A DNA stretch of 64,000 bases from Candidatus Delongbacteria bacterium (GCA_963663545.1 OY760505.1:224001-288000), one strand, 5' to 3'; shown: positions 1 to 61,950, numbered from the stretch's first letter. Translations and numbers: made by a program. The notes: generated by a model not told the origin, from the sequence alone.

Positions 1-2151
1 GGCTGCTTTCTGAACGCTTTCGTCGCTTTTCAGCATCTCGCGCAGAGTTTCAACCAGCGGCTGTCCGTTCCAATTGTAGAAGAGATCCGCCGAAGCATTG
101 CTATTGCGTGTCACAGCACTCATGCCATTCGACATCGCATTACCATTTGCGGCTTCGCGCTCGAGCAAGGTCAGTCGGCGGCGGAGCAGGTCTTTTAGTC
201 GCGCTGTATCACGCAACTCTACACTCTCCAGTGTATCACGCATGAGTCCGCAATACTCGCTGAAGTTTGAGTAGAGGCAGCGACCGCTTAACGACAGCCA
301 CGCAACAGGCTTATCATACTCCAGGATATCGAAGCCCAACAGCGCGCTTGCTCCGGGAGCAACACCAAGCCGTTGTTGTCGCTCGGCTGTAGCCAGGAAG
401 TCCTCACCTCCACAACCGAGTTTGTCCAAGGCCCGCAACAGGATCGACATGCGGGGCACATCTTCCGGCGCAAGTTCAGGAAGCGGAAACACCATTTCTA
501 TCCAGGCAATACCGTTGCTGCCACAGGGGTAGAACTGCATCTCATGCCCGGCCACGTTTTCCACGCAGGCCTGCGGATAACTAGGATCCTCGGTAACCTC
601 ACTCAAGCGCAGGCGGGGCAGCTGGTCGAGGTCTTCTTCCACCTGCTGTTTGTGACGCAACTCGGTAGCTTGTGATACAAGGTGTTCGCGCTCGCTGTCG
701 CTCAGTGCCTGCTCGCGACTCTGCAACCACTCCTGTTCCACCAGCACTTCTCGTGCGGCCATTTCGGCGTCCGGTACCAAACTGAAATTTACACGGTGAG
801 GGTTCTCCAGAAGCATGCGCTTGACTAAGGCAGGCAAATAGGCGGGATCCTTTAGTCGCTTGTGCAAGCGGTCCAACGCCGGTCCCTGATTGATGCCGTC
901 CACCGGATCGCCACCATGTAACACACGCTCCCCGGCACGCTCTAGCAACTCCAGCAGGAAGGGCATCCAGTTGCTGTCCTCGGTGTTGCGGTGATCCAGC
1001 TCCAGCTGATGTAGGGCGCGATCCACATCCTCACGTGGTAACCCTTCTGCGGCAACCTTTTCCAGCACCGACAGGATCAGCTTTTCGATCTCCGCCGCAT
1101 GCTTTTGGTCACTGCCCTGGAAGCCGGTGACAAACTGCATCTCGCTGGTATCAGTGCGCACGTAATTGCCAAACGGCGCCTTGCCCAGATCGCTGGCTTC
1201 CAGTGCGCGCATCAGCGGACTGGAGCTGCCGGTCATCAATACCTGTTGCAGGAACTCCGCGTCCATGCAGGCGTCCAGATCCGAAGCTGGCCCCAGCAGC
1301 CATGCCAGCGCGACATAGGCTTGTCCGTCTAGGGTTTCGCCGCTGAAGGGATACGTAGCCGAGCTTGTCACAGGTTTCTCGTGATACTGCTCCCGGGGAA
1401 TTGTGAATGTATCACCGACTCCTGGGAAGCGGTGCAAGACAAGCTCCTGGAAACGTTGCTGATGTTCCGCTGCGGAGATATCACCGACCGTCAAGAAGAT
1501 GGCGTTGCTCGGATGGTAATAGCGCGCGTGAAAAGCCTTGAACTCTTCGTAGCTCAAATGCGGAATACAGGCCGGATCTCCGCCAGAATTGTTGCGATAG
1601 AAGAGCGTCGGAAACAAGTATTGATCCAATCCCGCATAGAAACGGCGCACGGGCGAACTCATCGCGCCCTTCATCTCGTTGTAGACGACGCCGTGTACTA
1701 CAAGTCCGCTCTCAGGATCTACCGGATCACGAAACTCCAGGCGGTGACCCTCCTGGCGGAAATCCAGCTCGGTCAGCAGCGGGAAAAACAGGCAATCCAG
1801 ATAAACCTGCAGCAGGTTGTCAAAGTCCTTGCGGTTGCAGGAGGCAAAGGGATAGCTCGTTGCATCCGGTCCCGTCATCGCATTCATGAAAGAAGAGAAG
1901 CTGCGATTCCCCATGTGTGTAAAGACTTCGTGAACGGGAAATCTCTCGCTGCCTTGTAACACACAATGCTCAATGATGTGGGCTACGCCTGTGGAATCGG
2001 TGGGCAGGGTGCGAAAGACAACGGAAAAAGCATTGTGCGATTTACCGTTGTCCAGATGGATATGTCGTGCACCGGTAGTTGTGTGACGGTAGTCCTCGCA
2101 GACAAGTCCCAGCGCCGGGACTTCCTGGCGGGACAACAATTCAAAACTCAT
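1..2151 (-). CDS. M16C (insulinase / presequence-protease-like) zinc metallopeptidase, 3' end runs off the window
   Basis: Manual translation from ATG at 2151 (overlaps the SSS stop as ATGA, GGAGGA RBS upstream): MSFELLSRQE...TGVAHIIEHCVLQGSERFP...FMNAMTGPDATSYPF. Contains the inverted HxxEH zinc motif and the MNAMT motif. Not in the ORF track because the stop lies outside the window. Confidence 0.9.
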   Translation of the reverse strand, partial: MSFELLSRQEVPALGLVCEDYRHTTTGARHIHLDNGKSHNAFSVVFRTLPTDSTGVAHIIEHCVLQGSERFPVHEVFTHMGNRSFSSFMNAMTGPDATSYPFASCNRKDFDNLLQVYLDCLFFPLLTELDFRQEGHRLEFRDPVDPESGLVVHGVVYNEMKGAMSSPVRRFYAGLDQYLFPTLFYRNNSGGDPACIPHLSYEEFKAFHARYYHPSNAIFLTVGDISAAEHQQRFQELVLHRFPGVGDTFTIPREQYHEKPVTSSATYPFSGETLDGQAYVALAWLLGPASDLDACMDAEFLQQVLMTGSSSPLMRALEASDLGKAPFGNYVRTDTSEMQFVTGFQGSDQKHAAEIEKLILSVLEKVAAEGLPREDVDRALHQLELDHRNTEDSNWMPFLLELLERAGERVLHGGDPVDGINQGPALDRLHKRLKDPAYLPALVKRMLLENPHRVNFSLVPDAEMAAREVLVEQEWLQSREQALSDSEREHLVSQATELRHKQQVEEDLDQLPRLRLSEVTEDPSYPQACVENVAGHEMQFYPCGSNGIAWIEMVFPLPELAPEDVPRMSILLRALDKLGCGGEDFLATAERQQRLGVAPGASALLGFDILEYDKPVAWLSLSGRCLYSNFSEYCGLMRDTLESVELRDTARLKDLLRRRLTLLEREAANGNAMSNGMSAVTRNSNASADLFYNWNGQPLVETLREMLKSDESVQKAA

Positions 2152-4007
2152 CGATCCTCCCTATCAGGAACAAGCCGGGGTGCGGGTGTGGGACTCGCGC
2201 TTCCTTCCCCGGCGGGATTGGGTTTCAATTGGAAAAACCAGATCAGCACTGCACCAGCAACGGCACAGAGCGCGCAGAGGGCGGCGGGCCATGCGTGCAG
2301 CAGCAGAAGGTGTCCCAGGAAAAAGGTTACACCATAGATCAACAACGCGCCGCCGATCCATGAAGGCAGAAAGGCCCTGAGCAGCGAAGGCTGTCCCACG
2401 GCGTGCGGGTAGCGTTCTTTCAGTTCGCCCCAGGCACCTCCAGGTCGTACGCGCTCATAAAAGCGTTCCAGTGTATCACGCGGCTCGGGTTTGGTCAGCA
2501 GCGTGACACTGACCCATACTACGATGGAAAAAGGCACCACAATCAGCGCCTTTACTGCCGTACTCACGGGCTGGCCAAAGAGCTCGGGCGCTGTTGCAAA
2601 CAGGCGATACTCGCCCGGCGCACTCTGCACAAAGGCCAGAATCTCCAGCCCGAAAGTCACTAGAATGGAAGCTCCCAGCGCACTCAGCTCCGACCAGGCA
2701 TTGATACGCCACCAGAACCAGCGCAGAATGAGCACCAGGCCAATGCCGGCCCCCATCGCCCAGACGAAAATCCAGGCGCGATCGATGGAACTCATGAAGA
2801 AAGAGAGCGCCGCCGACAGGGTAATGAGCACCAGAATGGTCAGCCGACTGATAAAGACGTAATGCCGTTCATCGGCCTGCGGTTTGAGAAAGCGCCGGTA
2901 GATGTCATTGACCACGTAGCTGGCGCCCCAGTTCAGGTGCGTGTCGATGGTGCTCATGAATGCGGCAAGAAAAGTGGTGACCAGCAATCCACGCAGCCCC
3001 GGTCCCAGCACGGCCTTGAGCACCATCGGGTAAGCGAGTTTATTGCCCGAGGCCTCAGTAGTGTCGGCGATGTGCGGGAATAGCACCAGGCTGACCAGCG
3101 CCACTAGAATCCAGGGCCAGACACGCAGTGCATAGTTGGCCACATTGTACCACAGCGAAGCCTTCACCGCATCACGCTCACTGCGACAAGCCATCATGCG
3201 TTGTATCACATAACCGCCGCCGTCGGCGTTGTGGTTGCTCCACCACATCAAGGTGATGAAGATGAAGAAAGTGAAGAAGCTGCTGCCCATGAACCCATCA
3301 CCAAAACCATCGAAGGTGGGCACGAAGGAGGTCAAATGCTGCGGTGTGTCGGAGAGTCCGGCGAGCTTCTGTTGCAGCGCGCTTAGCCCACCCACCTCGG
3401 CAACGGCGAACCAGGCCAGCAGAATCGAACCCGTCATGGCCAGAATGAACTGGACCAGATCGGTGACCACCACTCCCCAGAAGCCGGAAAGCACGGTGTA
3501 GACCACGGCGATCGTTACCAAGGTCCAGGTAGTCAGTTGCGGACTGCTGCCCGTAAGCACTTGCACAACGGTGCTCATGCCGTTGATCACCCAGCCCATG
3601 ACGATGAAGTTGTAGACAGTGGCAAACCAGCCCGCCTTGAAGCCGCGCAAAAAGGCTGCGGGACGCCCGCTGTAGCGCAGTTCGATCAGCTCATTGTCCG
3701 TTAACACGCCAGCGCGTCGCCACAATCGACTGAAGAGGAAAACGCCGAGCAACCCTCCCAGGGCCAGATTCCACCACCACCAATTCCGCCAGATGCCGTG
3801 ACCACGTACCATTTCAGTAATGGCCAAAGGCGTATCGGCGGCAAAGGTTGTGGCCACCATCGAGGTCCCCAGCATCCACCAGGGCAGACTGCGTCCGGCG
3901 AGAAAGAAATCGCTCGTTGAGCGCGAACTGCGGCGGGTCAGGTAAATGCCCGTGCCCAGGGCAAACAGCAGATATGCAGCTACAATCAACCAATCCAGAA
4001 TCGTCAT
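2148..4007 (-). CDS. Sodium:solute symporter (SSS family)
   Basis: DFFLAGRSLPWW, SMVATTFAADT and AAFMSTIDT motifs; many TM segments. Confidence 0.92.
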   Translation of the reverse strand: MTILDWLIVAAYLLFALGTGIYLTRRSSRSTSDFFLAGRSLPWWMLGTSMVATTFAADTPLAITEMVRGHGIWRNWWWWNLALGGLLGVFLFSRLWRRAGVLTDNELIELRYSGRPAAFLRGFKAGWFATVYNFIVMGWVINGMSTVVQVLTGSSPQLTTWTLVTIAVVYTVLSGFWGVVVTDLVQFILAMTGSILLAWFAVAEVGGLSALQQKLAGLSDTPQHLTSFVPTFDGFGDGFMGSSFFTFFIFITLMWWSNHNADGGGYVIQRMMACRSERDAVKASLWYNVANYALRVWPWILVALVSLVLFPHIADTTEASGNKLAYPMVLKAVLGPGLRGLLVTTFLAAFMSTIDTHLNWGASYVVNDIYRRFLKPQADERHYVFISRLTILVLITLSAALSFFMSSIDRAWIFVWAMGAGIGLVLILRWFWWRINAWSELSALGASILVTFGLEILAFVQSAPGEYRLFATAPELFGQPVSTAVKALIVVPFSIVVWVSVTLLTKPEPRDTLERFYERVRPGGAWGELKERYPHAVGQPSLLRAFLPSWIGGALLIYGVTFFLGHLLLLHAWPAALCALCAVAGAVLIWFFQLKPNPAGEGSASPTPAPRLVPDREDR

Positions 4008-4136
4008 CGAGGCTCCGTGTTGAAAGGATAGAAGGTATAAAACCGCATCCAGCCCTTCATTTCATGAACAGGATCCAGCTTTCAATATATTCAATCCTAT
4101 TGCCGATATTATTGACGTTTCAGCTCTGGAGGCGCG

Positions 4137-4565
4137 ATGTCAATCGGTTTTGAGTACAACGAGACAGAGAATATCCTCTTCATCCGCAGTGGCGAGACCC
4201 TTTGCATGCAGGATTATCTCGTCTACCGCAACGCACTGCGCAATCAACCCTTTCGCGACAACCTACGCTGCCTGGCCAACTATTTAGGCACGACGGTCAG
4301 TATGAACTACGAAGAAATGCTGTATACGGTAAAGCGTACTCGGGATATCTTTGAAGGTACAAAGCGGGTACGCGTCGTGATCTGTGTTACAGGCGCACTT
4401 TCCCTTGGCCTCGCGCGTATGTACAGCCTCCTTAATGAAAGTGATGACTATCAGGTGCAAGTAGTTGACAGCGTCGAAGAGGCCTTGCGCACGCTGAACA
4501 TTGACCCGGAGCTGCTTCCTGAGCACTTCGAGATGCTGAATGCGGGTGCGCCAGACGGCGAGTGA
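4137..4565 (+). CDS. Small hypothetical protein, possibly STAS/SpoIIAA-like fold
   Basis: 142-aa ORF with GGAGG RBS; C-terminal GLARMY...VVDSVEEAL pattern resembles SpoIIAA-like proteins. Confidence 0.6.
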   Translation: MSIGFEYNETENILFIRSGETLCMQDYLVYRNALRNQPFRDNLRCLANYLGTTVSMNYEEMLYTVKRTRDIFEGTKRVRVVICVTGALSLGLARMYSLLNESDDYQVQVVDSVEEALRTLNIDPELLPEHFEMLNAGAPDGE

Positions 4566-4600
4566 GTCGGCTAACCGATTCACAGGGGCGGGTTCGTCAG

Positions 4601-5956
4601 TTAAAAGGCGTGATCCGATATCATCTGCACCGCGCCCCCCTCACTGCCCACACCCAGATCCACACGTATCACGAGCTGATTTACCAGTAAGCGCAGGCCC
4701 AACAGTCCGTTCACCTTCATGGCTTGATGCAGCGTGCTAAGGTCGTAGCCGGGCGCAACGCGACCCGCCTCCAGACCATAGACCAACTGCAGCCAGTCGA
4801 TGCGCATGCCCAACTTCTGCAGCAAAGCGATCTTCTCCAGCGGATTCCAGCGCAAGGTCTGCCGTAGCTCCGCCTGATACACCAGCGCCGAGCGATCGTT
4901 GAAACGCGCCGGCGCATAGGCGCGCATGCGGTCCATACCTCCCAGACTGGCACCAGCGTAGGTTGGTGGCCGGTGATACACTGGATCACCATCTGCAGCA
5001 TCGGCACTGTTCCATGTGAGACAGTGACTGGTCCACACACTTAACGCCAGGGTGAGTCGCCGTGTGTGTGTGCCTGATCCAAGTGGCAGGTAGCCTGTTG
5101 CACTGCCCATCGCCTGCGTCCATGAGTTACTGGAAGCGCCGCTCCCCCAATCGCGTGACACAGCGGCATAAATCCGGCTGCCGCGCGTGGGATCATCACT
5201 GAAGTCGGTGGCGTCGTACTCGACAAAGAAATCGCTGCCGATGGTGGTGGAGTTGAAATCGCCGACATGGCTCAGCGACAGGTCCTGGCTACGATAAAAG
5301 GGACGCACTCCCAGCATGGTGTAGCCGGTCTTCCAAGGCAGCGGGGGCCATGTATCACGGGCACCCTCAACCACAATGCCATCGCGTAATACAAGGCGAT
5401 GCATCTTCTCGTAACGCCCCTGCCCCAGCGGTAACAAGTAATGCAAGCGAAGCCAGGCTTCCTGATCCAGGCCGTTGCCTTCCAGGTAATTGTCCGGATC
5501 CGAATCATTGGCCCCCGCACGCGCATCCGCAAAGTCGGGATGCCCGTCGCTGAACACCTTCATTGCGTCAAAGTACCCGAGGGTCAGCCGTGAGGTGGCG
5601 TACAAGCGCCCATGTGGAAAAGGACGCAGATCGCTGGCCTTGGCGTATAGGTAGTTCGTGCCTTTGCTGCCAGCGAAAGCCGTGAGAAACAGCGAAGACT
5701 GGGGTTGAGGCCAACTGCTGGTCACAGCGGCGAGCGCCACCGCCGCGCCCATCATGTCGTTGTAGAAGGCAAAGGGAAACAGGGCCAAGCCGGGCTTGCC
5801 ACCTACTTCACCGGCGCGAACCAGTTCCTCCTGCGCGTGTGACACGGAACAGACGGACAACAGTAGAAGCAGTACCACGGCGGCGCGTCGCAAACAGGAT
5901 TCCAGATCGTGGTTGGCTGGGGCAGGCAGAAGAGCGCTAGCAGAGTGAAGGGACAT
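4601..5956 (-). CDS. Omp85/BamA-TamA-like outer-membrane barrel protein without obvious POTRA domains
   Basis: Signal-peptide-like segment ending SHA-QE, LGGMDRMRAY (VRGF-like loop 6) motif, C-terminal Phe; start at 5956 or 6013 uncertain. Confidence 0.7.
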   Translation of the reverse strand: MSLHSASALLPAPANHDLESCLRRAAVVLLLLLSVCSVSHAQEELVRAGEVGGKPGLALFPFAFYNDMMGAAVALAAVTSSWPQPQSSLFLTAFAGSKGTNYLYAKASDLRPFPHGRLYATSRLTLGYFDAMKVFSDGHPDFADARAGANDSDPDNYLEGNGLDQEAWLRLHYLLPLGQGRYEKMHRLVLRDGIVVEGARDTWPPLPWKTGYTMLGVRPFYRSQDLSLSHVGDFNSTTIGSDFFVEYDATDFSDDPTRGSRIYAAVSRDWGSGASSNSWTQAMGSATGYLPLGSGTHTRRLTLALSVWTSHCLTWNSADAADGDPVYHRPPTYAGASLGGMDRMRAYAPARFNDRSALVYQAELRQTLRWNPLEKIALLQKLGMRIDWLQLVYGLEAGRVAPGYDLSTLHQAMKVNGLLGLRLLVNQLVIRVDLGVGSEGGAVQMISDHAF

Positions 5957-6236
5957 GGGAACCTCAAACGAAACGTGGCGGCGGGCACTGCCAGCATGCA
6001 GGCACTCGCGCATATCCTGGGTCTACGTTCCCATATTCTCGTTCCCCCGGCGCACAACTTAAGATGTTACGGGCTTCGTCACGCAAGCCGGGCCATTTTT
6101 GCTTCACAGTCTTGCCGTGAAGCAGTTGGCGAAACGGTTGGAATCATCCAAGAGCAATCGGCAGTGACACAGGTGAAAAGCCACACTGCCGGTCAACCTG
6201 GCTATGCAGACTGACTGGCAGTAGTTGAGGCGAAGA

Positions 6237-7454
6237 TTAGGTCAGACCGTCGCGGCGGTGCCAGGAGAAATTCAGCAGCAGGCCCACCAGCGCCATATTG
6301 GTCCAGGTAAAACTGCCGCCGTAGGTGAGAAAGGGCAGCGGTAGGCCGGTCACCGGCGCCACGCCAATGGTCATGCCCACATTGACGAGGACATGAAAGA
6401 AGAGCAGCGAGGCGATGCCCGTCATCACCAGCCCGCAGAAGTTGTTACGGTGGCGCAGCGCAACGGTGAGCACGCGAATCAGCAGCACGGTGAACAGGCC
6501 CAGAACGAGTACGGCGCCAAGGAAGCCGAACTCCTCTCCCAGCACGCTGAAGACGAAGTCGGTGTGGCGCTCAGGCAAAAAGGCGAGCTGAGTCTGGCTA
6601 CCCTGCAGGAAGCCCTTGCCGCTAAAGCCCCCCGAACCAATAGCCACTTTCGATTGAATGATCTGATAGCCTGCGCCCAGAGGGTCGCTTTCGGGATCGA
6701 GAAAAATGCGAATGCGCTGCTGCTGGTAGGGCTTGAGCAACCCCCAGAGCATGGGCAGCGCAAAGCCGATGCCCGCGTTCACCGAGAGCACGGCCGAGGT
6801 CACCAGCATGTTGGCTTCGGCCGCGTACAGCAGCACTCCCAGGGCAATGATGAAAGGCAACAGCAGGAAGATGTTCTGACTAAGCAGTGCCGATACGATG
6901 GGCGCGACAATGTAGAGCACCCAGGGCCAGGGAAGGCCAGCACGAATCAGCATGGGAAAGAGCACAAAAGCATAGACCAAGGCGGTACCCAGATCAGGCT
7001 GCACCAGCACGAGGCCCATGGGCAGCAGTGCCACCAGCGCCGCCATGATGATATGGGCCGGTCTGCGCAGGTCGATGCGGTTGTCGGCAAGCAACCGTGC
7101 TACAGCCAGGATCAGAGCCAGCTTGCCTAATTCCGAGGGCTGAAAGCGAAAGGCGCCAATTTGCAACCAGCGTTCGGCTCCCATACCCATGGCACCAGCC
7201 ACTTTAACCGCCAACAGAAGCAGCAGGCTACTCCCGTACAGCAGCCAGGAAGTGGCAAACCAGAAGTTGGGCGGCAACAGTGCCGCTGTGAGCAGCACAG
7301 GCAATCCCAGCAAAAGCCAGATACTCTGTTTGGTAGCGTAGTCAATGGGTTGATTGGCACTGGCGCTGGTCAACACCAATAGTCCCATCAGCATTAGGGC
7401 AAAGGCACTGAAAAAGAGAACCCAATCGAAGCGTTTCAGGATCTGCGCCAACAT
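6237..7454 (-). CDS. rodA: Rod shape-determining protein RodA (SEDS)
   Basis: FQPSELGK, LPERHTDF and LPFLTYGGS motifs; follows mrdA. Confidence 0.96.
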   Translation of the reverse strand: MLAQILKRFDWVLFFSAFALMLMGLLVLTSASANQPIDYATKQSIWLLLGLPVLLTAALLPPNFWFATSWLLYGSSLLLLLAVKVAGAMGMGAERWLQIGAFRFQPSELGKLALILAVARLLADNRIDLRRPAHIIMAALVALLPMGLVLVQPDLGTALVYAFVLFPMLIRAGLPWPWVLYIVAPIVSALLSQNIFLLLPFIIALGVLLYAAEANMLVTSAVLSVNAGIGFALPMLWGLLKPYQQQRIRIFLDPESDPLGAGYQIIQSKVAIGSGGFSGKGFLQGSQTQLAFLPERHTDFVFSVLGEEFGFLGAVLVLGLFTVLLIRVLTVALRHRNNFCGLVMTGIASLLFFHVLVNVGMTIGVAPVTGLPLPFLTYGGSFTWTNMALVGLLLNFSWHRRDGLT

Positions 7455-7456
7455 GA

Positions 7457-9304: not shown

Positions 9305-9307
9305 GAA

Positions 9308-10602: not shown

Positions 10603-10621
10603 AAGGGAGATCCCATTGCCG

Positions 10622-13238
<2,617 letters not shown>

Positions 13239-13254
<16 letters not shown>

Positions 13255-52996: not shown

Positions 52997-53004
52997 GTTT
53001 GTCA

Positions 53005-53183: not shown

Positions 53184-53217
53184 GATCCATCGAAGTATGT
53201 GAACCGTGTCTGGGTTT

Positions 53218-53275
53218 GTGCCAGCTTCCCTGTTCCTCTGCTGCACGCGGACGCGCAGCGTCTGAGGTGCAGCAC
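53218..53275 (+). repeat. Orphan copy of anticodon-arm fragment plus the 44-nt hairpin
   Basis: GTGCCAGCTTCCC-T-GTTCCTCTGCTGCACGCGGACGCGCAGCGTCTGAGGTGCAGCAC. Confidence 0.9.
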
Positions 53276-53281
53276 GGCTCT

Positions 53282-53315
53282 CCGATACCGATACCGATAC
53301 CGATACCGATATCGA
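53282..53315. repeat. (CCGATA)5 hexamer microsatellite
   Basis: Direct reading. Confidence 0.9.
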
Positions 53316-53321
53316 TGGGAG

Positions 53322-54320
53322 CTACTCCGCGCTGTGTTTTCTCAGGCTGCCGGCGACATCGCCTTTCCATTCTGCGCTCGTCTCAAGCGGACAGATCTCG
53401 GGAGGAGTTTCGTACCAGCGCTGCATGCCTTTGCGCCAATGACACCAGCTGGTTTCCGGGCCAAAATCGTGGGTGCTGAGCACGCAGGTTTCGCCCTGCG
53501 GGCTGAGGGCGTGTATCACGACTGATCCCAGAAAGCCCTCGCGCAGCCGGGCCATATCGGCCATCGCTTCGTGACAGGCCTCCTCCACACTCAGGCCGAA
53601 ACGCATGGCGGCCACCACTGCGCGCGCCGTGCCCGCTCGAATCGTCATCTCGCCGGTGTGGGTGCAGGCACAGGCTCCGTAGCGCTGATCGACGTAGAGG
53701 CCCGCGCCAATGACCGGCGAATCCCCCAGACGGCCAGGATACTTGTGCGCCCAACCGCTGGTGCTGGTGCCTCCTGCCAGCTGGCCTTGCTTGTTAATGC
53801 AGAGCAGAACCGTGGTGCCCTTGGCCATGTGCAGGCTCTCGCGCGGCCAGCAATAGGGCGCTAGCGGCTCACGACCAGAAAGCGCATTGCTCAGTCGTGC
53901 GCTCTGACGCTGTCGATGCCAGACTTCGCTTTCGTCGCTAAGCATCTCCGCTTCGGCAGCACCCACTTCACGGGCAAATCGTGCAGCACCTTCACCCACC
54001 AGCATCACGTGAGGCAATTTCTCCATGACACGGCGTGCTACACTGACCGCATGCAGGTAGCCGGAAAGCGCTCCCACACTGCCGCAGCAGCGTGTTACGC
54101 CATCCATGATGGCCGCATCGCACTCCACCACTCCTGCCAGATTGGGGTAACCGCCATAACCGACGGTACGCACAGCAGGATCGGCCTCCACGGGATGAAT
54201 GCCCGCCTCAACAACGTCCAAGGCGCTCTTGCCAGCCTCCAGGGCCAGTACAGCGGCATCCATGCCCACGCGTCCTTCGCCATTCATCAGTACCAGCACA
54301 ACAAGCTCCCTTGCCTGCAA
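53322..54320 (-). CDS. Ntn-hydrolase: isoaspartyl peptidase / glycosylasparaginase family
   Basis: VGYGGYP, CDAAIMDG, KG|TT autocleavage site, TSTSGWAHKYPGRLGDSPVIGAG; start uncertain. Confidence 0.9.
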   Translation of the reverse strand: MQARELVVLVLMNGEGRVGMDAAVLALEAGKSALDVVEAGIHPVEADPAVRTVGYGGYPNLAGVVECDAAIMDGVTRCCGSVGALSGYLHAVSVARRVMEKLPHVMLVGEGAARFAREVGAAEAEMLSDESEVWHRQRQSARLSNALSGREPLAPYCWPRESLHMAKGTTVLLCINKQGQLAGGTSTSGWAHKYPGRLGDSPVIGAGLYVDQRYGACACTHTGEMTIRAGTARAVVAAMRFGLSVEEACHEAMADMARLREGFLGSVVIHALSPQGETCVLSTHDFGPETSWCHWRKGMQRWYETPPEICPLETSAEWKGDVAGSLRKHSAE

Positions 54321-54334
54321 GCGTCACTTATGTA

Positions 54335-55303
54335 TCACACCCGCCCACGAATCAGCAGAAAGAGAAAGAAAGGGCCACCCAACAGCGCCGTTAGAATACC
54401 CACCGGCATTTCCGCAGGAGCCAGCAGACTACGGGCCAGTGTATCACAGGCCACCAGAAACAGGCCACCGGCAGGAAACACCCAAGCACCAAGGCGCGCG
54501 TGCGTCGGCCCCAGCAGAAGACGCAGAATATGCGGCACCATCATGCCCACAAAGGCGATGGGACCGCAGACGGCCACCACCGCGCCCACAATCAGCGCAC
54601 TGGTTCCCAGCACAACGCGTCTCACACGGCGCAGATTCACGCCACGACTGGCGGCCAGCTCCTCGCCCGTGCACAACAAATCCAGCTCTCGGTGATGCAG
54701 TAGTAGCACAACGGATCCGCCAAGCACCAGCAAGGCCGTGAAGATCAGCTGCACCGTACCCGGAGCCGTGATACTCCCCATCAGCCAGCGCAGCAGACGA
54801 AAGGTCTGGGTGTAATCCGCCAGATATTGGGCCAGCATGACCAGGCTGCCGCAAATGAAATTGAGCGCCACACCCGCTAGAAGCAGACTGTGCTGCGTCA
54901 GTCCACCGGCAGCGCGTCCCACCAGCAGCACCAGGCCCATGGTGGCAAGCGCTCCCCCCATTGCGCCCGCAACACTCAAGCCTCCTGCCAGGCCGACTCC
55001 CAGGCCGAAAAGCGTCACCATCGCTGCGCCCAGCGACGCACCGGAAGCCAGTCCCAGTGTGTAGGGTGTGGCGAGCGGGTTGCGAAACAGCGCCTGGTAG
55101 ACCATGCCCGCGACCGCCAGGCCGCCTCCAGCCAGAAAGGCCAACAACACGCGCGGCAAACGCAGGTGCAAGAGGATCATCTGCTCATAGCCCGTGCTCT
55201 GCCAGAATGCGGGGGAAATCCAGGGCACACCGGCACTCACCGCCAGCAGCAGAAGAAAGGGCAACAGCACGTAGAGCAGAACCAGAGGCAGTCGCTGACT
55301 CAC
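54335..55303 (-). CDS. FecCD/BtuC-family ABC permease
   Basis: LRLPRVLL, FRNPLATPYTLG, GPIAFVGMMVPH and PVGILTALLGGPFF motifs. Confidence 0.93.
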   Translation of the reverse strand: MSQRLPLVLLYVLLPFLLLLAVSAGVPWISPAFWQSTGYEQMILLHLRLPRVLLAFLAGGGLAVAGMVYQALFRNPLATPYTLGLASGASLGAAMVTLFGLGVGLAGGLSVAGAMGGALATMGLVLLVGRAAGGLTQHSLLLAGVALNFICGSLVMLAQYLADYTQTFRLLRWLMGSITAPGTVQLIFTALLVLGGSVVLLLHHRELDLLCTGEELAASRGVNLRRVRRVVLGTSALIVGAVVAVCGPIAFVGMMVPHILRLLLGPTHARLGAWVFPAGGLFLVACDTLARSLLAPAEMPVGILTALLGGPFFLFLLIRGRV

Positions 55304-56052
55304 GCCGGACCTCCTTCTCTGAAGCCCTCCGGCAGACGCCCGTAGAGCTCTTGCAGCATCTGTGGCTGCAGCAGCCCCTGCACTTGGCCGAAGTATACCC
55401 TCTCACCCTGCTTCAGTGCGATGGCTGTATCACAAAGCGCGCTCATCGCACGCAAATCGTGACTCACCAGCAGATAAGAGCAGGCACGCTCGGCATGGAT
55501 GCGTCGCAAGACCTCGGCAAACTCGACACACTGACCAGGGTCGAGAAACGCGGTCGGCTCGTCCAGGAGCAGCCACTCGGCTTCCTGCGCCAGTGCTGCG
55601 GCCAGCATCACGCGCTGCTTCTCGCCACCGGATAATGTGGACATCCGACGCTTGCGCCACTCCACACATGACGTCAGTTCAAGGGCGTGACACACCGCCG
55701 GGTGATCGGTGGCCGGCGAGCTGAAACGCGGCTCGCGAGCGTAGCGTGCCAGGGCAACGAAATCTTCTACAAGGAAGTCGCTGCCCTGACGATCAGCTTG
55801 AGGAACCCAGGCCATGAGCCCTGCGCGTTCACGAGCCGTGATCCGTGGCAACGCACGCCCCGCGAACTGAATCCCGCCGTGATACGGAAGCAGTCCCAGC
55901 AGGCAACGCAGCAGCGTGCTTTTTCCTGCTCCGTTGGGCCCTGCCAGCAGACAGCGCGAACCCGCAGGCAACTTCAGGCTGAGATCCTTCAGCAGGAAAC
56001 GCCCACCGCGCTGCACACTTAGATGCTCGAATTGCAGCTCGCTCAAGGACAC
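55300..56052 (-). CDS. ABC ATPase (BtuD/FecE type)
   Basis: GPNGAGKS, LSGGEKQR, LLLDEPT and SHD motifs. Confidence 0.93.
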   Translation of the reverse strand: MSLSELQFEHLSVQRGGRFLLKDLSLKLPAGSRCLLAGPNGAGKSTLLRCLLGLLPYHGGIQFAGRALPRITARERAGLMAWVPQADRQGSDFLVEDFVALARYAREPRFSSPATDHPAVCHALELTSCVEWRKRRMSTLSGGEKQRVMLAAALAQEAEWLLLDEPTAFLDPGQCVEFAEVLRRIHAERACSYLLVSHDLRAMSALCDTAIALKQGERVYFGQVQGLLQPQMLQELYGRLPEGFREGGPA

Positions 56053-56984
56053 AGCGTCTCCCGCTTCAATTCAGGATGCAGACAAAGTGCCAGTTCACAC
56101 AGAGCTTGCCCCAGCCGCGGGCCCGGAATCGTCAAGACAGGATCGCTGAGCACAAAGACGTGCCCCTGTGTCACGGCAACAATGCCCTGCAACAGCAGCC
56201 AATCCTCGCGCAGGCTCTCCTCTGAGCGTGCACCGTTCTCTGGAACCAGCTCGAATATCACCTCCGGTTGCAGGTGATACAAACTCTCGCGATCAACCTG
56301 TGGCACGGCAGGAAGACTGCCAGCATAAACGTTCTCGCCACCCGCCAGTGTAAGTAGCTCGCTCAAATAACTACCGCCACCGGTCATGTAGAGGTCGCGG
56401 GGTAGTCCGGGAGCCGGGTCTCGACCAACGCAAAGTGCCGTGCGTATCACAGGGAAAGGTGCACAGAGCTGCTGTACGTGATCCAGCTGTGTCTGCAACG
56501 CCTGTTTCAGTGAGTCGGCGCGGGTTTCCCCGCCCAAGTAGAGTTGCAGGCTATCGAGGGAGGACAACAAACCGGCCAGTGTGTCGTGTTGCAGCAGCAG
56601 ACAGCGAATGCCCATCGCCCGCAGACTCTGGGCGGCATCGGCGCCCTCGCGCAGCAGTAACACCAGATCGGGTTGCAGTCGTACAACGGATTCGATGCTC
56701 AGATCCAGGTAGCCGCCCACACGTGGCAGCTCCTGTGTTTCCGTGGGCCAATTGCAGTAGCGTGTCACGCCCACCACACGATCCCCTGCTCCGCAGGCGA
56801 AAAGGCACTCGGTGATACTTGGTGCCAGGCTGACCAGCCTCTGCGGGGATGTCGATACTGGAACAGAACCTAGCGCGTTCACCGGCTGTGGCAGCAGGCA
56901 AAGCAGCGCGAAAAGCAGGCTGAAAAGGGTGATACGCACGCGGCTACCTCGAGAATGACTCCTGCAAGGTAACAATCGCGGCAA
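56043..56984 (-). CDS. BtuF-like helical-backbone substrate-binding protein (cobalamin / iron chelate)
   Basis: RLVSLAPSITE, VGVTRYCNWP, RVGGY and IPGPRL motifs; true start may be slightly downstream. Confidence 0.88.
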   Translation of the reverse strand: MPRLLPCRSHSRGSRVRITLFSLLFALLCLLPQPVNALGSVPVSTSPQRLVSLAPSITECLFACGAGDRVVGVTRYCNWPTETQELPRVGGYLDLSIESVVRLQPDLVLLLREGADAAQSLRAMGIRCLLLQHDTLAGLLSSLDSLQLYLGGETRADSLKQALQTQLDHVQQLCAPFPVIRTALCVGRDPAPGLPRDLYMTGGGSYLSELLTLAGGENVYAGSLPAVPQVDRESLYHLQPEVIFELVPENGARSEESLREDWLLLQGIVAVTQGHVFVLSDPVLTIPGPRLGQALCELALCLHPELKRETLCP

Positions 56985-56988
56985 GGCT

Positions 56989-57771
56989 TCAGAGGAAGCG
57001 CGTGAGTAGGGTGTCGATCTGGCCAGCCCAATAGGGAATCTGGTCGCCGACGAAGATAGCGAAGGGCGCCATCAGCAGGCCGAGCATCACAATGCCCACG
57101 CCGATTTTCAGTGGAAAGCCGACGATAAAGATGTTCATCTGCGGCACGACGCGCGCCACCACCCCCAGCCCGACTTCGGCCAGCAACAGAGCCGCCAGCA
57201 CCGGTGCCCCCATGCGCAGCCCAAGAATGAGCACCTCGCCCGAGATGCGAATGGCGTCGTCGCGCAGAAGCCCGCTCAGCTCCACACCGCCTATGGGCAG
57301 ACGCTGAAAGCTCTCGAAGAGCGCACTCAGGATCATGTGATGCCCGTCCAGAACCAGGAAGATTAGTAGTAGCCCCCAGCGCAAGAGTTGGCTGATCAGA
57401 CTCTCCTGCGAGCCCGACTCGGGATCCAGCACCGCAACTACGCCGAAGCCCATCTGCACCCCGACGAGCTGTCCCGCAAACTGGGCCGCCCAGAAGAGGG
57501 CCTGTATCACAGCGCCCAGGAACACTCCCAGAAAGACTTCGTGAAAGGCCATGCCCAGCCAGGAATAAATAGAATGCGGCCCCGGCGGCAGGTGATCCAC
57601 CGGCAGTAGCGGTATCACAATCAGGGTCAGAATGATACCGAAGGAGATCTTCCATCTTGTATTGGTGGCGCGCGAGCCAAAGAAAGGTGCCGCAATCAGC
57701 AGCCCCAGAATGCGCATCAGGACCAGCAAAAAAAGCTCGACCAGCGCCAGGGGAAACTCGAAGAAGGGCAT
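56989..57771 (-). CDS. fliR: Flagellar export protein FliR
   Basis: AGQLVGVQMGF, DGHH and RVVPQMNIFIVGFPLK motifs. Confidence 0.95.
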   Translation of the reverse strand: MPFFEFPLALVELFLLVLMRILGLLIAAPFFGSRATNTRWKISFGIILTLIVIPLLPVDHLPPGPHSIYSWLGMAFHEVFLGVFLGAVIQALFWAAQFAGQLVGVQMGFGVVAVLDPESGSQESLISQLLRWGLLLIFLVLDGHHMILSALFESFQRLPIGGVELSGLLRDDAIRISGEVLILGLRMGAPVLAALLLAEVGLGVVARVVPQMNIFIVGFPLKIGVGIVMLGLLMAPFAIFVGDQIPYWAGQIDTLLTRFL

Positions 57772-58037
57772 CAGCTAAGTCCCGTGATCAGCGAAAATAG
57801 GTTGGTGGTGTACGCCAGCAGGGATTGCATCATCCAGGGCATCAGAAACAGAAGCGTAAGTGCAACGGCGACGATCTTGGGGATGAAGGTCAGCGTCATC
57901 TCGTGTACCTGTGTCACGCTCTGCAGGATGCCGATGACCAGACCCACCACCAGACCGACAATCAGAATCGGTCCGGCAATCAGGAAGGAAATCCACAAGG
58001 TTTCCTTGATCAGGTGTACGACGAGTTCCTGTGACAC
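57771..58037 (-). CDS. fliQ: Flagellar export protein FliQ
   Basis: QSVTQVHEMTLTFIPK. Confidence 0.95.
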   Translation of the reverse strand: MSQELVVHLIKETLWISFLIAGPILIVGLVVGLVIGILQSVTQVHEMTLTFIPKIVAVALTLLFLMPWMMQSLLAYTTNLFSLITGLS

Positions 58038-58052
58038 AAGACAGGTCCTTCT

Positions 58053-58808
58053 TTAGAATCGGAAGCCTTCCACAACCGAACGTATCAGCAGATTCCAGCC
58101 GTCCACCAGCACAAAGAGCAGCACTTTGAAGGGCAGACTGATCATCACCGGCGGCAGCATCATCATACCCATGCTCATCAGCACACTGGCGACCACCATG
58201 TCGATGACCAGGAAGGGCAGGTAGATCATGAAGCCGATTTGAAAACCAATGCGTAGTTCGCTGATGACGAAGCCCGGTATCACAACGGTAATGGGCAGCT
58301 CTTCAGGCGTGCTGGGACGGTCGATGTGCGCCAGTCGCACGAAGAGCGCCAGGTCCTCCTGCCGCGTCTGCCGCAGCATAAAATCCTTGAAAGGCTGCTG
58401 GCCAATGACAAAGGCCTCTTTTTGCGTGATGTCCCCGTTCAGATAGGGCTGCAGCGCCTCCTGATTCATCTGATCGAAGGCTGGTCGCATCACAAAGAAA
58501 GTCAGAAAGAGCGCGAGGCCCACCAGCAGCTGGTTGGGCGGCAATTGCTGCGTTCCCAGCGCCTGGCGAATGAAATGCAAGACAACGATGATGCGCGTGA
58601 AGCTGGTGGTCATGATGAGCAAGGCGGGCGCCAAGGCCAGCAGCGTCATCAGCAGCAGGATTTCCAGCGCGACGACAAAATCCGGCGAAGCGCCTTGTCC
58701 TCCCGCACCAAAACTGATGCTCAGACCGCCCGGAGCGGCCGCAGGCGCTTGGGCAATAGCGGGCAGCGCCAGCAGAAAGAGCGGCAGGAGTTTCAGCAGG
58801 CCTTTCAT
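58053..58808 (-). CDS. fliP: Flagellar export protein FliP
   Basis: TSFTRII, PPNQ and GMMMLPPVMISLPFKVLLFVLVDGW motifs. Confidence 0.97.
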   Translation of the reverse strand: MKGLLKLLPLFLLALPAIAQAPAAAPGGLSISFGAGGQGASPDFVVALEILLLMTLLALAPALLIMTTSFTRIIVVLHFIRQALGTQQLPPNQLLVGLALFLTFFVMRPAFDQMNQEALQPYLNGDITQKEAFVIGQQPFKDFMLRQTRQEDLALFVRLAHIDRPSTPEELPITVVIPGFVISELRIGFQIGFMIYLPFLVIDMVVASVLMSMGMMMLPPVMISLPFKVLLFVLVDGWNLLIRSVVEGFRF

Positions 58809-59248
58809 TTTGCGCCGCCCCCGGCCGATTCAGCCTGGCTCAGAAAACCGCTGAAGGGGCCGCCTCCGCGGCAGTCGCGTATCACGGCTTCCGCCTCCTC
58901 GCCCTTCCAGGTTTGCAGCGAGCGAATGCCGCCGTCGCTGATTCCCAGCAGAAGCACACGATCGGCGGCGCGTACCAGCAGCAGTTGCCGACGCGGTCCA
59001 AGCCCCAGTGCCTGCAGGCTTTCCAGCGGTCGTCGCGGTGATCCCGGTTTGACGCGCGTGTGCAGATAATCGCGCCCCAGGCGTAGCACCCAGTAGAAGA
59101 CGAAGAAGAGCAGAAAGACCAGCGCGGCCTTGATTCCCAGCATCCACAGGCTTTCGCTGGCGCCTGACAGATGCCGGAAGGCGCCCAGACTGTCGGCGAA
59201 TTGTGTCACGGGGGAAGCTTGTCCCAAGCTGTCGGCGGCGGGTATCAT
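58805..59248 (-). CDS. fliO: Flagellar protein FliO
   Basis: Single TM then LGPRRQLLLV...LLLGIS; between fliN and fliP. Confidence 0.8.
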   Translation of the reverse strand: MIPAADSLGQASPVTQFADSLGAFRHLSGASESLWMLGIKAALVFLLFFVFYWVLRLGRDYLHTRVKPGSPRRPLESLQALGLGPRRQLLLVRAADRVLLLGISDGGIRSLQTWKGEEAEAVIRDCRGGGPFSGFLSQAESAGGGAK

Positions 59249-60244
59249 TTACTGCGTAGCCTGTCGCATGCGCTCTTCCATCTTGACCAGATCCGTGATA
59301 CGCACGCCGAAATTCTCGTCGATGACCACGACCTCGCCCAGCGCGAACTTCTTGCCGTTGACAAAGAGATCCACCGGCTCGCCCACCAACTTGTTCAGCT
59401 CGACGATGGAGCCCGGGTTCAGCTCGACGATATCTTTGATCAGCATGCGCGTGCGGCCCAGCTCGATGGTCACCGGCAGATCCAGATCCAGCACCTTGCC
59501 CAGACTGTGGGTCATGGTCCCATCAAAGGCATTGCTCGCAGGCTGAGGCGCAGAGCCGAAATCGGTGAACTCGGCGCGCTTGACCTCCCGCTGGGGCTCC
59601 TCGTCGGGAATAGTGTCGGGCATGGGGATCTCGATCTCGCGCGGTGCGTCCTCCTGCGGTTCAGACGCACTTGCTCCGTCAGCTCCATGCAGCAGCACCT
59701 TGCCCAAGGATTCAAAGGCTTCGGGGCTGTAGGCCTTGAGCAGTGTGGCAGGCGCCTGGCCTTCGATGATGACTTCAAAGCGCACCAGCACCCAGTCGGC
59801 GTATTCGGCAGCCAATTCGGCCATGGTCATCAGCCGCGCGGCCTGCACCTCGTTACGCAGACTCAGCCCCAGGCGCAGCGACATGTCGGTCATCTCCGCG
59901 CCCATGAGCTGATTGATGGCTTCGACGATGCCGTCCAGATGCTCGTCGGGCATGAACTCCACTTCGCCGTCGCCCATGATCATGAAGTCGACGACCTTGG
60001 CGGTGAGGATCTTGCTGAGCAGGAAAAGAATGCTGCCCGAAAGCCCCTTCACAAAGGTGGATTCCACCTGGACCAGCTCGTCCTCGCCCAGACCGTTCAG
60101 GTAATCCGCGTCCACCTTGACCAGCTCGAGCAGATTGACCTTGGTCTCCAGGTTGATCACCGTGCGGAAGATCTCACCCGCGCGCTCGGCGAAGCCCGTC
60201 TCCAGCGTCTGATAGGCTTCCAGATTGGGAATGCTCTCTGCCAT
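59249..60244 (-). CDS. fliN: C-ring protein FliN with N-terminal CheC-like region (FliY-like)
   Basis: C-terminal IELGRT...GEVVVIDENFGVRIT; N-terminal EAINQ (ExxN) CheC-like motif. Confidence 0.85.
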   Translation of the reverse strand: MAESIPNLEAYQTLETGFAERAGEIFRTVINLETKVNLLELVKVDADYLNGLGEDELVQVESTFVKGLSGSILFLLSKILTAKVVDFMIMGDGEVEFMPDEHLDGIVEAINQLMGAEMTDMSLRLGLSLRNEVQAARLMTMAELAAEYADWVLVRFEVIIEGQAPATLLKAYSPEAFESLGKVLLHGADGASASEPQEDAPREIEIPMPDTIPDEEPQREVKRAEFTDFGSAPQPASNAFDGTMTHSLGKVLDLDLPVTIELGRTRMLIKDIVELNPGSIVELNKLVGEPVDLFVNGKKFALGEVVVIDENFGVRITDLVKMEERMRQATQ

Positions 60245-60291
60245 AATCCTGCCTTGCTCCTGCCTATATCAGGCCTGTGCCAGCCGCCTGG

Positions 60292-61296
60292 CTAGCCAGC
60301 GTGAAACTCATTCCAGATCGGATCGTGCAGACGATCCACTTCCTGTGTGATACGAAAACCACGGCGCAGGCCCAGCTTTCCGGGGCGCCCGAGGAATTTC
60401 ACTTTGTTGCCGACGTACATCGGCAGCTCATCCTGCTCGCGTACGTCGAGAGTCAGCACGTCGCCCTTCTTCAGATGGAAGAACTCCGCCAGACTGACGT
60501 GCGCCTCGCCCAGCACTGCGCGCAGATCCAGTTCGCCGCAGAGAATGCGGTGCGCCACCGGCTGCCGCGCCTCGTCGTCCATGCGGCGGCCTTTGAGGTT
60601 CATGCGGCGGCCCATCACCAGATTGGGCACGGCGGGCTCGAGGACGAAATAGGGCATGCACACGTTCATCGGGAAGGTGAAATTGCGCACGCGGATCTCG
60701 AAGAAGACCACGGCCACCGTTTCGCTGGCGGGCGCGATCTGCACGAACTGCGGATTACTTTCGTAGGATTCGATGCGGAAGTCCATGGGAAACATGATCG
60801 ACCAGGCCTCATTGAGGGTGTCAATGAGCGTGTTGACGGTGCGCTCGATGACGTTCTGCTCGATGATGGTGATTTCGCGCGGGTCGCTGAGCTTCTCGCC
60901 ATGACCACCCAGCAGACGGTCGACCATGTAGAGCACGAACTGCGGTGAGAGCTCGACGATGATGGCGCCCTCGACGCGCTGGCTGCCCAGTACGTACATG
61001 CAGCTCAGTTCCGGCAGACTCATGGTGTATTCGGCGTAGGTCACCTGGTCCATGGAGAGCAGGTTGATTTCGGCCATAATGCGCATGGTGCTGGAAAGGT
61101 GCGTGCCCATCGCGCGCGCCAGCCCCTCGTGGATCGTGCGCAGGCTGCGCATCATATCCTTGCTGATGCGCTCGGGATGTTTGAAATCGTAGGGAGTGAC
61201 CTCTTTCAGGTCCTCCGGGACGATTTCTTTGGCGCTGGTGCCTTTGTAGCTGGCCAGCAGACTGTTGATCTCATTCTGGGAGAGGATCTTGTTCAT
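60292..61296 (-). CDS. fliM: Flagellar motor switch protein FliM
   Basis: ILSQNEINSLL CheY-binding peptide, YDFKHP, DRLLGG and ESNPQF; ATG at 61296. Confidence 0.95.
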   Translation of the reverse strand: MNKILSQNEINSLLASYKGTSAKEIVPEDLKEVTPYDFKHPERISKDMMRSLRTIHEGLARAMGTHLSSTMRIMAEINLLSMDQVTYAEYTMSLPELSCMYVLGSQRVEGAIIVELSPQFVLYMVDRLLGGHGEKLSDPREITIIEQNVIERTVNTLIDTLNEAWSIMFPMDFRIESYESNPQFVQIAPASETVAVVFFEIRVRNFTFPMNVCMPYFVLEPAVPNLVMGRRMNLKGRRMDDEARQPVAHRILCGELDLRAVLGEAHVSLAEFFHLKKGDVLTLDVREQDELPMYVGNKVKFLGRPGKLGLRRGFRITQEVDRLHDPIWNEFHAG

Positions 61297-61393
61297 GCCA
61301 CGCCTGTCCTCGCGCTCTCGCTCCCGGGAACCCTGCCGGACTCCCGCCCTGGCTCGCGAAGCGTTTCTTCGCAGAGCAATGCCCACTGTTCAT

Positions 61394-61409
61394 GGCAAAG
61401 CGCGTGCCG
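61394..61409 (-). promoter_or_regulatory. Sigma54 promoter upstream of fliM
   Basis: Minus strand CGGCAC-GCGCT-TTGCC about 100 bp upstream of the fliM ATG. Confidence 0.7.
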
Positions 61410-61597
61410 ACTTGCGAAATCCTGAACTTCGGCACTTCAGTCTAGCGGCAGATGGCTTCAACAGCGGGTTTGCAGAATCAGGCGCAATCAACGGGCCGGT
61501 TCGCGCGAAGCTGAGAAAGAAGCTCGGGGGGCAAGGTCTGCAGGGTGAGCTGGGCATCGCTTGCCTACAGCCAAGCAACCATGAGCAGCACGCGCTC

Positions 61598-61950
61598 TTA
61601 ATCGGTATCGGTGCCGACTCCTTTGGAGTCGGATCGAGTCTTCTCTTCTCCCTTCGTCCTTCTGTCACTACCAGCACCAACGAATGCTTCGCCAGCCTCT
61701 CTGATCGGACGGTGATACAACCGATTGTCGGAGAGAGTGGAAGGGAAGAAGACAAAGACTAAGACTAAGAACGATACCGATACCGATACCGATAGCGATA
61801 CCGATAAAGTGTATGAGGGATCGTAACATGGGCTTCACGAATGCCTATGGACGAAGCCATGCCGCTTCGTAGAGTGACGTGTTGAGCCAGGTCCTGAAGC
61901 ATGGCTTCGTCGAGGTGTCGCGCACGAAGTGCTCGACACACCGATAGCGA
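61598..61950. repeat. Intergenic repeat cluster: opposed (ATCGGT)n/(ACCGAT)n tracts, AAGACT repeats and hairpins
   Basis: ATCGGTATCGGT at 61601; (CGATAC)n at 61772-61806; 13-bp inverted repeat 61850-61862/61899-61911; hairpin 61915-61939. Confidence 0.75.

Follow-up and report, generated by a model that had tools for sequence, protein, structure and literature searches.

The only processes known to us that yield highly iterated short words in bacterial DNA are DNA-uptake bias, as in the DNA uptake sequence (DUS) of Neisseriaceae and the uptake signal sequence (USS) of Pasteurellaceae, and whatever maintains the highly iterated palindrome HIP1 (GCGATCGC) of cyanobacteria. Here we analyze a word of this kind, the heptamer GTATCAC/GTGATAC and its eight-base form TGTATCAC, in a 64,000-nucleotide stretch of DNA from Candidatus Delongbacteria bacterium (GCA_963663545.1 OY760505.1:224001-288000), hereafter the window, meaning this stretch at its full length. 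We know of very few short words this abundant in bacterial genomes, HIP1 being to our knowledge the only other one of its abundance class.

DUS and USS are short, non-palindromic words present in both orientations at about one copy per kb, a density calculated with general figures for genome size. Findlay and Redfield give 1,471, 765 and 1,892 copies per genome and describe uptake sequences as accumulating after transfer, with compatible tripeptides about doubled (PMC2817400). HIP1, according to Xu et al. (PMC5861425), is characterized by a 15 to 300-fold excess, conservation, favored one-off variants and periodicity, and roles in uptake, methylation and the nucleoid have all been proposed for it (PMC13756078; PMC5861425). 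A 2026 paper gathers evidence that HIP1 makes transformation more efficient in a way that depends on methylation and may be an uptake word in its own right (PMC13756078).

The word of the window resembles DUS and USS in being short and non-palindromic, in its density near 1/kb and in its use of both orientations, and it resembles HIP1 in the order of its excess (24 to 55-fold here), in copies that seem to have arisen by substitution in coding and non-coding DNA, in favored single-mismatch variants and in its uneven density. Unlike HIP1, it is no palindromic octamer (the reverse complement of TGTATCAC is GTGATACA), has no GATC or CGATCG methylation core, and belongs to another phylum; unlike DUS and USS, it resides in a host of the Fibrobacterota-Chlorobiota-Bacteroidota (FCB) group and not of the Proteobacteria. 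The first-pass annotation, which pointed out the heptamer, had recognized no known motif in it, and indeed its 7-, 8- and 9-mer forms were absent as separate words from the roughly 8.4 million papers and preprints searched, where matches to the word inside longer strings were primers only. Degenerate (IUPAC) forms were likewise absent from this literature.

An eight-base word on both strands

All counts given here refer to the one 64-kb window and to both of its strands. The heptamer occurs in 90 exact copies spread over 206..61718, 46 of them on the + strand and 44 on the - strand (p = 0.92), and is the top-ranked 7-mer of the window, ahead of CCAGCAG with 70. Dinucleotide shuffles produced a mean of 3.78 copies (sd 2.09, max 11), and none of 100 shuffles reached 90; Markov models of orders 0, 1, 2 and 3 predicted 5.9, 3.7, 7.3 and 12.8 copies, respectively. 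The initial estimate had been about 85 copies counted by eye, a roughly 15-fold over-representation against a zero-order expectation of about 6. The computed expectation agrees with it, the over-representation turns out to be stronger, and each position that had been quoted for the heptamer (206, 233, 1381, 9983/9993, 39516/39524, 41401 and 57504) does hold a copy. Over dinucleotide shuffles, the excess amounts to 24-fold for the 7-mer and 55-fold for the 8-mer TGTATCAC, which is found 56 times, compared with 1.01 expected (shuffle max 3). As control DNA we used nine unrelated loci (GC 0.44-0.65), obtained as matches to a PBP2 query at 28-40% identity from Gammaproteobacteria, Pseudomonadota and Chloroflexota metagenome-assembled genomes (MAGs); these contained 4 copies in 141,961 bp, i.e., 0.03/kb vs 1.41/kb in the window.

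On the + strand, the copies start at 206, 233, 1409, 2473, 3203, 4666, 5352, 8194, 9742, 9885, 9983, 9993, 11760, 12077, 12356, 12797, 17119, 17476, 17658, 18366, 21714, 22852, 23316, 23877, 24462, 25218, 28538, 36107, 38448, 39516, 39524, 40379, 41401, 41782, 48305, 49908, 51516, 53513, 54332, 54441, 55427, 56444, 57504, 57612, 58277 and 58879. Those on the - strand start at 672, 1381, 4973, 7908, 9395, 9405, 10488, 16076, 16124, 16295, 16356, 16606, 17240, 18186, 20510, 21219, 21326, 21387, 22138, 23901, 24284, 25400, 30213, 36086, 36577, 40188, 40435, 40946, 42240, 44442, 45166, 47787, 48057, 48549, 49924, 51617, 54768, 55879, 56274, 56812, 56929, 59295, 60347 and 61712.

When all 90 copies were aligned, information outside the heptamer was confined to the base preceding it (-1, T in 56/90) and the base following it (+1, T in 3/90), with no conserved flank beyond these two positions. 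T occupies -1 in 34 of the 40 copies in which this base is free, namely all five intergenic copies and 29 of the 35 in which it falls at a third codon position, and in only 4 of the 18 in which it would force a Cys codon. The eighth base is thus set by the DNA signal and not by the protein, and the full word is the 8-mer TGTATCAC. The 8-mer differs by a single base from half of the parS palindrome; this link was set aside, as the variant that would match (A3 to T) shows no enrichment, with 3 copies vs 7.1.

Most copies (85/90) lie in genes, which make up 92.5% of the window, at a density of 1.44/kb in coding and 1.04/kb in intergenic DNA. Within genes, 42 copies are in sense and 43 in antisense orientation, distributed over the frames as 12/18/12 (sense) and 20/23/0 (antisense), the empty frame being the one that would read a TGA stop; their position within genes is uniform (Kolmogorov-Smirnov (KS) p = 0.39). 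Copies had been reported from the outset in different frames, and in fact all five stop-free frames are in use. Because the word occupies both strands and all stop-free frames, is as frequent in sense as in antisense, and is placed uniformly along genes, a peptide, RNA or transcription-linked signal is excluded. The word acts at the level of DNA.

Strand symmetry also bears on whether the word could be a polar signal for recombination or segregation, of the Chi type or of the FtsK-orienting type (architecture-imparting octamers, AIMS). Of the 53 genes, 51 are on the - strand, and GC skew drops steadily along the window, which probably lies within one replichore. In favor of a polar signal, the DinG-like helicase gene and ligA carry 7 and 4 copies. 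The excess of Chi is much smaller than that of this word, and 24 to 55-fold lies far above it. Chi and AIMS resemble the word in being non-palindromic 7 to 8-mers scattered in genes, yet they are strand-biased by definition (PMC5861425), whereas the copies here split 46/44 within what is probably a single replichore. We regard a polar origin as very improbable.

The word stands as a single site. Counting exact and one-off sites together, 60 others lie no more than 60 bp from an exact copy, compared with 49 expected, and they show no favored distance or orientation to a partner site; a dimeric or partner-site architecture was rejected. The gaps between copies are not distinguishable from an exponential distribution (KS p = 0.20) with a mean of 691, under which about 3.8 gaps of <=30 bp would be expected; there are eight, four between direct and four between inverted copies. 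The close direct pairs, all exact matches, comprise one on the + strand inside mreC, 10 bp apart (9983..9999), and those at 9395/9405 (10 bp), 39516/39524 (8 bp) and 206/233 (27 bp). Three of the close inverted pairs are within genes (1381/1409, 23877/23901 and 36086/36107). The fourth (49908..49930), the sole intergenic one, has 7-bp arms and a 9-nt spacer and lies downstream of a type IX secretion system (T9SS) cargo gene; no T-run follows this pair (49908/49924) on the transcribed strand.

Codon and protein constraints on the word

A further null shuffled synonymous codons within each gene, leaving the proteins and each gene's codon usage unchanged; it is a generous one, because rare codons brought in by the word's own copies form part of its pool. 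Under this null, the mean was 19.1 copies (sd 3.1, max 29; 200 shuffles), and a repeat with 120 shuffles again gave 19.1, while pooling codons over genes gave a mean of 15.3 (max 26). The 90 observed copies lie about 19 to 22 sd above the codon-preserving expectation, a 4.7-fold excess. The first-pass annotation had made its claim of a highly iterated motif hang on this very comparison, and the enrichment persists (90 vs 19.1), which, with the sense/antisense balance and the use of all stop-free frames, bears out a highly iterated short word at the DNA level.

These data also speak to whether the word could be an artifact that arose by chance, through biased amino-acid or codon use, or from dispersed mobile-element remnants, such as repetitive extragenic palindromic (REP) sequences or miniature inverted-repeat transposable elements (MITEs). 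Codon preservation does lift the expectation from ~4 to 19, and a small part of the abundance is thus due to composition. However, 90 copies exceed the maximum of 200 such shuffles, both strands and all stop-free frames are used, and no information extends beyond -1 to +1. REP sequences and MITEs have a conserved unit beyond the core and are mainly intergenic; here, what a repeat search detected around the copies was limited to chance extensions of 18 to 19 nt (D8, D19), with no family of longer repeats, and 85/90 copies are in genes that stay open. Chance, codon usage and mobile elements are thereby excluded as origins on the strength of the codon null, the frame use and the lack of flanks or longer repeats, and we find an artifact barely credible.

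The word takes its toll on codon choice. It had been noted early on that the word forces GTA, TCA and ATA codons, and codons of all three types do fall inside copies: 20 of the window's 50 ATA, 12 of its 82 TCA and 12 of its 149 GTA codons, in addition to 25 of 182 ACA codons. There are 136 places in which the word is compatible with the encoded peptide, i.e., where no amino-acid change is needed, and 85 of these (62%) are filled, compared with 11.2 predicted by codon usage. Permissible sites are nearly saturated. Occupancy by frame is 79%, 75%, 67%, 62% and 38%, lower where rarer codons are needed: the two highest values belong to frames served by common codons and the lowest to the frame requiring GTA and TCA. 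Among the 51 empty compatible places, 11 use AGY serine codons, for which filling takes a switch of serine family, four mismatches away. The frame use of uptake sequences is likewise tied to codon preference (Findlay and Redfield, PMC2817400).

Protein conservation was examined in two alignments, one of PurH and 20 homologues at 61 to 85% identity, the other of the DinG-like protein and 19 homologues at 45 to 88%. Residues encoded by copies seem less conserved (0.465; 33 residues at 11 sites in the two proteins) than the other 1,453 (0.570), with p = 0.055. Eight of these 11 copies are in tripeptides for which relatives have other residues; the remaining three are in conserved tripeptides, where the word is made by synonymous codons alone, e.g., Val-Ile-Gln with ATA. 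This pattern suggests that many copies arose after the lineage had separated from its relatives at 50 to 70% identity; some may have cost an amino-acid change. Uptake sequences favor poorly conserved amino acids (PMC2817400).

Variants, uneven density and neighboring loci

A second word is enriched on both strands of the window (1..64000) under Markov and codon nulls alike: GTAACAC/GTGTTAC, with 21 copies, compared with 4.0 under the codon-preserving null (max 9, z = 9.1, 5.3-fold) and with the 2.6 to 5.9 predicted by Markov models of orders 0 to 3. Of 106 compatible places it occupies 21, where 2.6 would be expected, while the control GTACCAC fills 9 of 107 (9.1 expected), and its copies use 9 of the window's 46 TTA codons. 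Its flanks are those of the main word, with T at -1 in 12/21 copies and T at +1 in 1/21. Together, the two words (GTAWCAC) amount to 111 copies. In the literature searched, GTAACAC/GTGTTAC appears as a separate word in a paper on delta-proteobacterial regulons (PMC545781) and otherwise in three unrelated papers.

Further neighbors are enriched only mildly over the codon-preserving null: GTAGCAC (11 vs 4.8, 2.3-fold) and GTGTCAC (23 vs 14.3). The latter, GTGTCAC/GTGACAC, had been singled out as a recurring one-base variant, and with 23 copies it does recur, but the palindromic one-off neighbors GTGTCAC and GTATTAC attain just 1.6 and 1.7 times the codon null, far below GTAACAC. Neighbors altered at positions 1, 6 or 7 show no enrichment under this null, and the enriched ones retain T at -1 and avoid T at +1. 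Such position-specific tolerance, the strongest variant being a transversion, resembles what would be expected of a reader protein and not of random decay.

Gene calls rest on Pfam and NCBIfam scans of 57 open reading frames (ORFs). The housekeeping content comprises an M16 peptidase, a sodium:solute symporter, rodA, pbp2, mreD, mreC, mreB, purH, purN and an OPT transporter. There are also a T9SS cluster (PorV, M6-like protein), gltX, fadL, a sigma-54 two-component pair, a DnaQ-DinG helicase, gcvPB, gcvPA, gcvH, accC, accB, efp, ligA and an iron-type ABC transporter, as well as the flagellar genes fliR, fliP, fliO, fliN and fliM, followed by motB and motA. Copies are unevenly shared among these genes. 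The OPT transporter gene, gltX, gcvPA, accB, efp, motA and motB have none and gcvH has one, in agreement with the sparseness first remarked on for this set. Word density drops with rising GC content at third codon positions (GC3; rho = -0.34, p = 0.012), a trend that fits the sparse, probably highly expressed genes.

Binned at 2 kb, the counts along the window show over-dispersion (index 1.89, p = 0.002). A 10.7-kb stretch (25407..36085) has only two copies (28538 and 30213), the 88 others being spread over 53.3 kb. In this stretch are porV, gltX, a GDSL hydrolase gene, fadL, a thioredoxin-TPR gene, a sigma-54 response regulator gene and the 3' part of a histidine kinase gene. Between 28,001 and 36,000, just 1 of 14 compatible places is filled; outside this interval the figure is 84 of 122 (Fisher p = 1e-5). 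As three genes of the stretch have low GC3 (0.62 to 0.64), the gap is not accounted for by codon bias, and no alternative word, or 'dialect', is enriched within it. The tetranucleotide profile of the stretch, with copies masked, correlates with that of the rest at r = 0.90 to 0.91, as high as anywhere. The best homologues of its GDSL hydrolase are on contigs of 38,667, 47,096, 99,084 and 78,363 bp, and the best PurH homologues are on contigs of equal sizes; given these four matching sizes, the gene order is old and conserved in relatives. A foreign origin was rejected on the grounds of this linkage of the GDSL hydrolase gene to purH in four relatives and the typical tetranucleotide signature, and the word-poor stretch looks native.

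The uneven density lends some weight to an alternative in which the word is the binding site of an abundant chromosome-organizing or nucleoid-associated protein. A native-looking stretch left nearly empty despite its 14 compatible sites fits selection on placement, and the position-dependent tolerance described above is like a protein's recognition matrix. A further parallel is offered by HIP1, for which periodicities of 10 to 90 kb are described (PMC5861425). On the other hand, the word shows no dimeric or phased architecture, its spacing is not distinguishable from an exponential one (KS p = 0.20, in a window that at 64 kb is too short for periods of 10 to 90 kb), there is no known candidate protein, and a filling of 62% exceeds what a spacing function would seem to need. 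On balance, we consider a nucleoid role rather unlikely.

A mutational origin fares worse. The first-pass annotation had noted that deamination of 5-methylcytosine would be expected to turn GTGACAC into GTGATAC, but the supposed precursor is enriched 1.6 to 3-fold, not depleted. Moreover, a single precursor word with ~8 copies expected could hardly feed a product of 90. Deamination is further disfavored because the best second word, GTAACAC, is a T-to-A transversion at position 4 and not a transition, and because a genome-wide mutational process would not spare a native 10.7-kb stretch.

A more elaborate version casts the word as a functionless by-product of an asymmetric DNA methyltransferase (Type IIS, IIG, III, BREX-like or orphan) coupled to a methyl-directed repair ratchet through which site-creating substitutions become fixed, as Elhai proposed for HIP1. 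Asymmetric 6 to 7-bp targets are typical of Type IIS, IIG, III or BREX-like enzymes, and near-cognate words are somewhat enriched here. HIP1 itself has been tied to two methyltransferases, and the ratchet was proposed for it (PMC13756078; PMC5861425). Set against this, the ratchet was formulated for palindromic, doubly methylated sites, its simple deamination form fails in view of the enriched GTGACAC, and repair bias should act everywhere, yet the native stretch has 1 of 14 places filled while 84 of 122 are filled elsewhere. In addition, the 57 ORFs of the window include no DNA methyltransferase or mismatch-repair gene detectable by Pfam or NCBIfam. A methylation-driven origin therefore seems improbable to us.

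Several other repeats occur in the window. The hexamer GGTATC/GATACC forms three intergenic arrays, in both orientations and with about 5 to 6 units in each, at 49809-49842, 53282-53316 and 61772-61806; these supply the window's most frequent 10-mers (11 copies). Their unit has GTATC in common with the heptamer but departs from it at positions 6 and 7, the two at which no change is tolerated in the heptamer. A 165-bp tandem repeat (52002-52996; 5.8 copies, 95% matches), which contains no copies of the heptamer, runs into the tRNA-Gly(CCC) gene at 52924-52996, the only tRNA gene; Rfam and ARAGORN call just the last, intact copy, and Rfam and tRNA scans of the window yielded nothing besides this tRNA. 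Each 165-bp unit includes a look-alike of the tRNA 5' half up to the anticodon loop, ~45 extra bases and the 3' side of the anticodon stem, with no T-arm. Downstream of the tRNA are a 98-bp unit repeated 1.8 times with 100% matches (53005-53183) and an isolated sixth copy of a 62-nt piece of the 165-bp repeat (family D2; 53218-53279). The region from 52.0 to 53.3 kb is thus rich in repeats and nearly gene-free, and a 103-aa ORF overlapping the tRNA (52935-53246) is probably not real.

The ORF at 50070-51077 encodes a 335-aa protein with a type IX C-terminal sorting domain; the adjacent 95-aa ORF (51250-51537) amounts to that domain alone and is possibly what is left of another, second cargo gene. 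The main type IX neighborhood (19117-26625) encodes a PorV-family outer-membrane protein, a 1081-aa MA-clan peptidase/PD40 protein and a 1006-aa protein that scores 341 bits against the 'T9SS-dependent M6-like inactivated metalloprotease' model, short of the cut-off of 600. It shares this genome region with a full flagellar export and motor set (56989-64000).

With regard to the host, purH of the window is on a contig of 3,721,866 bp. The nearest PurH relatives are at 85% identity (partial) and then at ~70%, matches with a named source starting at 53 to 56%; for the DinG-like protein, the first of these are Candidatus Delongbacteria MAGs at 48 to 52% identity. Farther matches come from Caldithrix, Calditrichaeota, Ignavibacteria, Latescibacterota and Zixibacteria. 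These protein relatives, together with the type IX secretion genes, place the host in a deep FCB-group lineage. The best database match of the DnaQ-DinG protein (38260-41136) has 88% identity over 60% of the length, while PurH and the GDSL hydrolase match at 100%; the DnaQ-DinG gene may have been called with different ends in the source annotation.

DNA uptake as the favored process

As chance, codon usage, mobile elements, polar signaling and deamination all fail as origins, the word is almost certainly a real signal on double-stranded DNA that drive or selection maintains. The process that we favor, at a probability of roughly 0.4, is self-recognition linked to uptake or transformation, with a word comparable to DUS, USS or HIP1. 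Uptake had been one of three functions offered by the first-pass annotation, beside methylation/repair and nucleoid protein binding. We propose that TGTATCAC followed by A, C or G would be iterated genome-wide, with GTAACAC as a weaker accepted variant, and that a sequence-specific protein would read the word on double-stranded DNA as a single, orientation-independent site. Copies would arise by point substitution, with no flanking element or extra insert. If the transformation machinery prefers word-bearing fragments, alleles that create the word would be imported and recombined more often than alleles that destroy it, a molecular drive under which the word could spread until about two thirds of the places tolerated by proteins are filled. 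Where needed, rare codons would be accepted, as would amino-acid changes that are lineage-specific and affect poorly conserved residues, and the word might also serve as a tag of 'self' or 'kin' DNA.

The likeness to DUS and USS on which this proposal leans goes beyond density and symmetry. Like them, the word lies in genes in several frames, with frame use following codon preference and copies perhaps tending to poorly conserved residues, and like them it has enriched one-off variants. Within 64 kb we thus find the huge over-representation, the equal orientation and the spread over several frames that mark DUS and USS; inverted pairs arranged as terminators are not among the features found.

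Several points weigh against uptake. Only 5/90 copies are in the 7.5% of the window that is non-coding, with no terminator or intergenic concentration and a single intergenic inverted pair devoid of a T-run; by comparison, a preprint places about half of the uptake-associated DUES in predicted terminators (bioRxiv 10.1101/2025.10.24.684340). At 7 to 8 bp, the word is also shorter than DUS and USS, which measure roughly 10 bp (PMC5861425). The lower conservation of copy-encoded residues is marginal (p = 0.055), and the native-looking word-poor stretch is not what a simple genome-wide drive predicts. Pfam and NCBIfam detected no uptake or competence gene, pilin or DNA-receptor protein among the 57 ORFs of the window. 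We know of no uptake specificity described in the FCB group, and literature searches on this subject found none, the concept searches returning only work on DUS, USS and HIP1.

A bolder extension, which we hold to be doubtful, is that this might be the first sequence-specific uptake or kin-recognition word outside Proteobacteria and Cyanobacteria, the shortest known at 8 bp, with GTAACAC as a second 'dialect'; word-free native stretches would then represent DNA either protected from exchange or replaced not long ago.

Sequence-specific DNA uptake is defined by DUS and USS, and HIP1 has been a puzzle for three decades (PMC5861425; PMC13756078). A non-palindromic example from an unrelated phylum provides an independent case in which uptake bias, methylation-linked repair and chromosome structure can be set against each other. 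Since the word is short enough to fit most proteins, it comes near to saturation, making its codon and amino-acid cost directly measurable. As a DNA marker of the lineage, it could help in metagenome binning and in the detection of recent imports. The word also points to a sequence-specific DNA-binding protein yet to be found. If the uptake reading is true, it would mean that a deep, largely uncultivated lineage of the FCB group undergoes natural transformation with a preference for its own DNA, by way of a new receptor.

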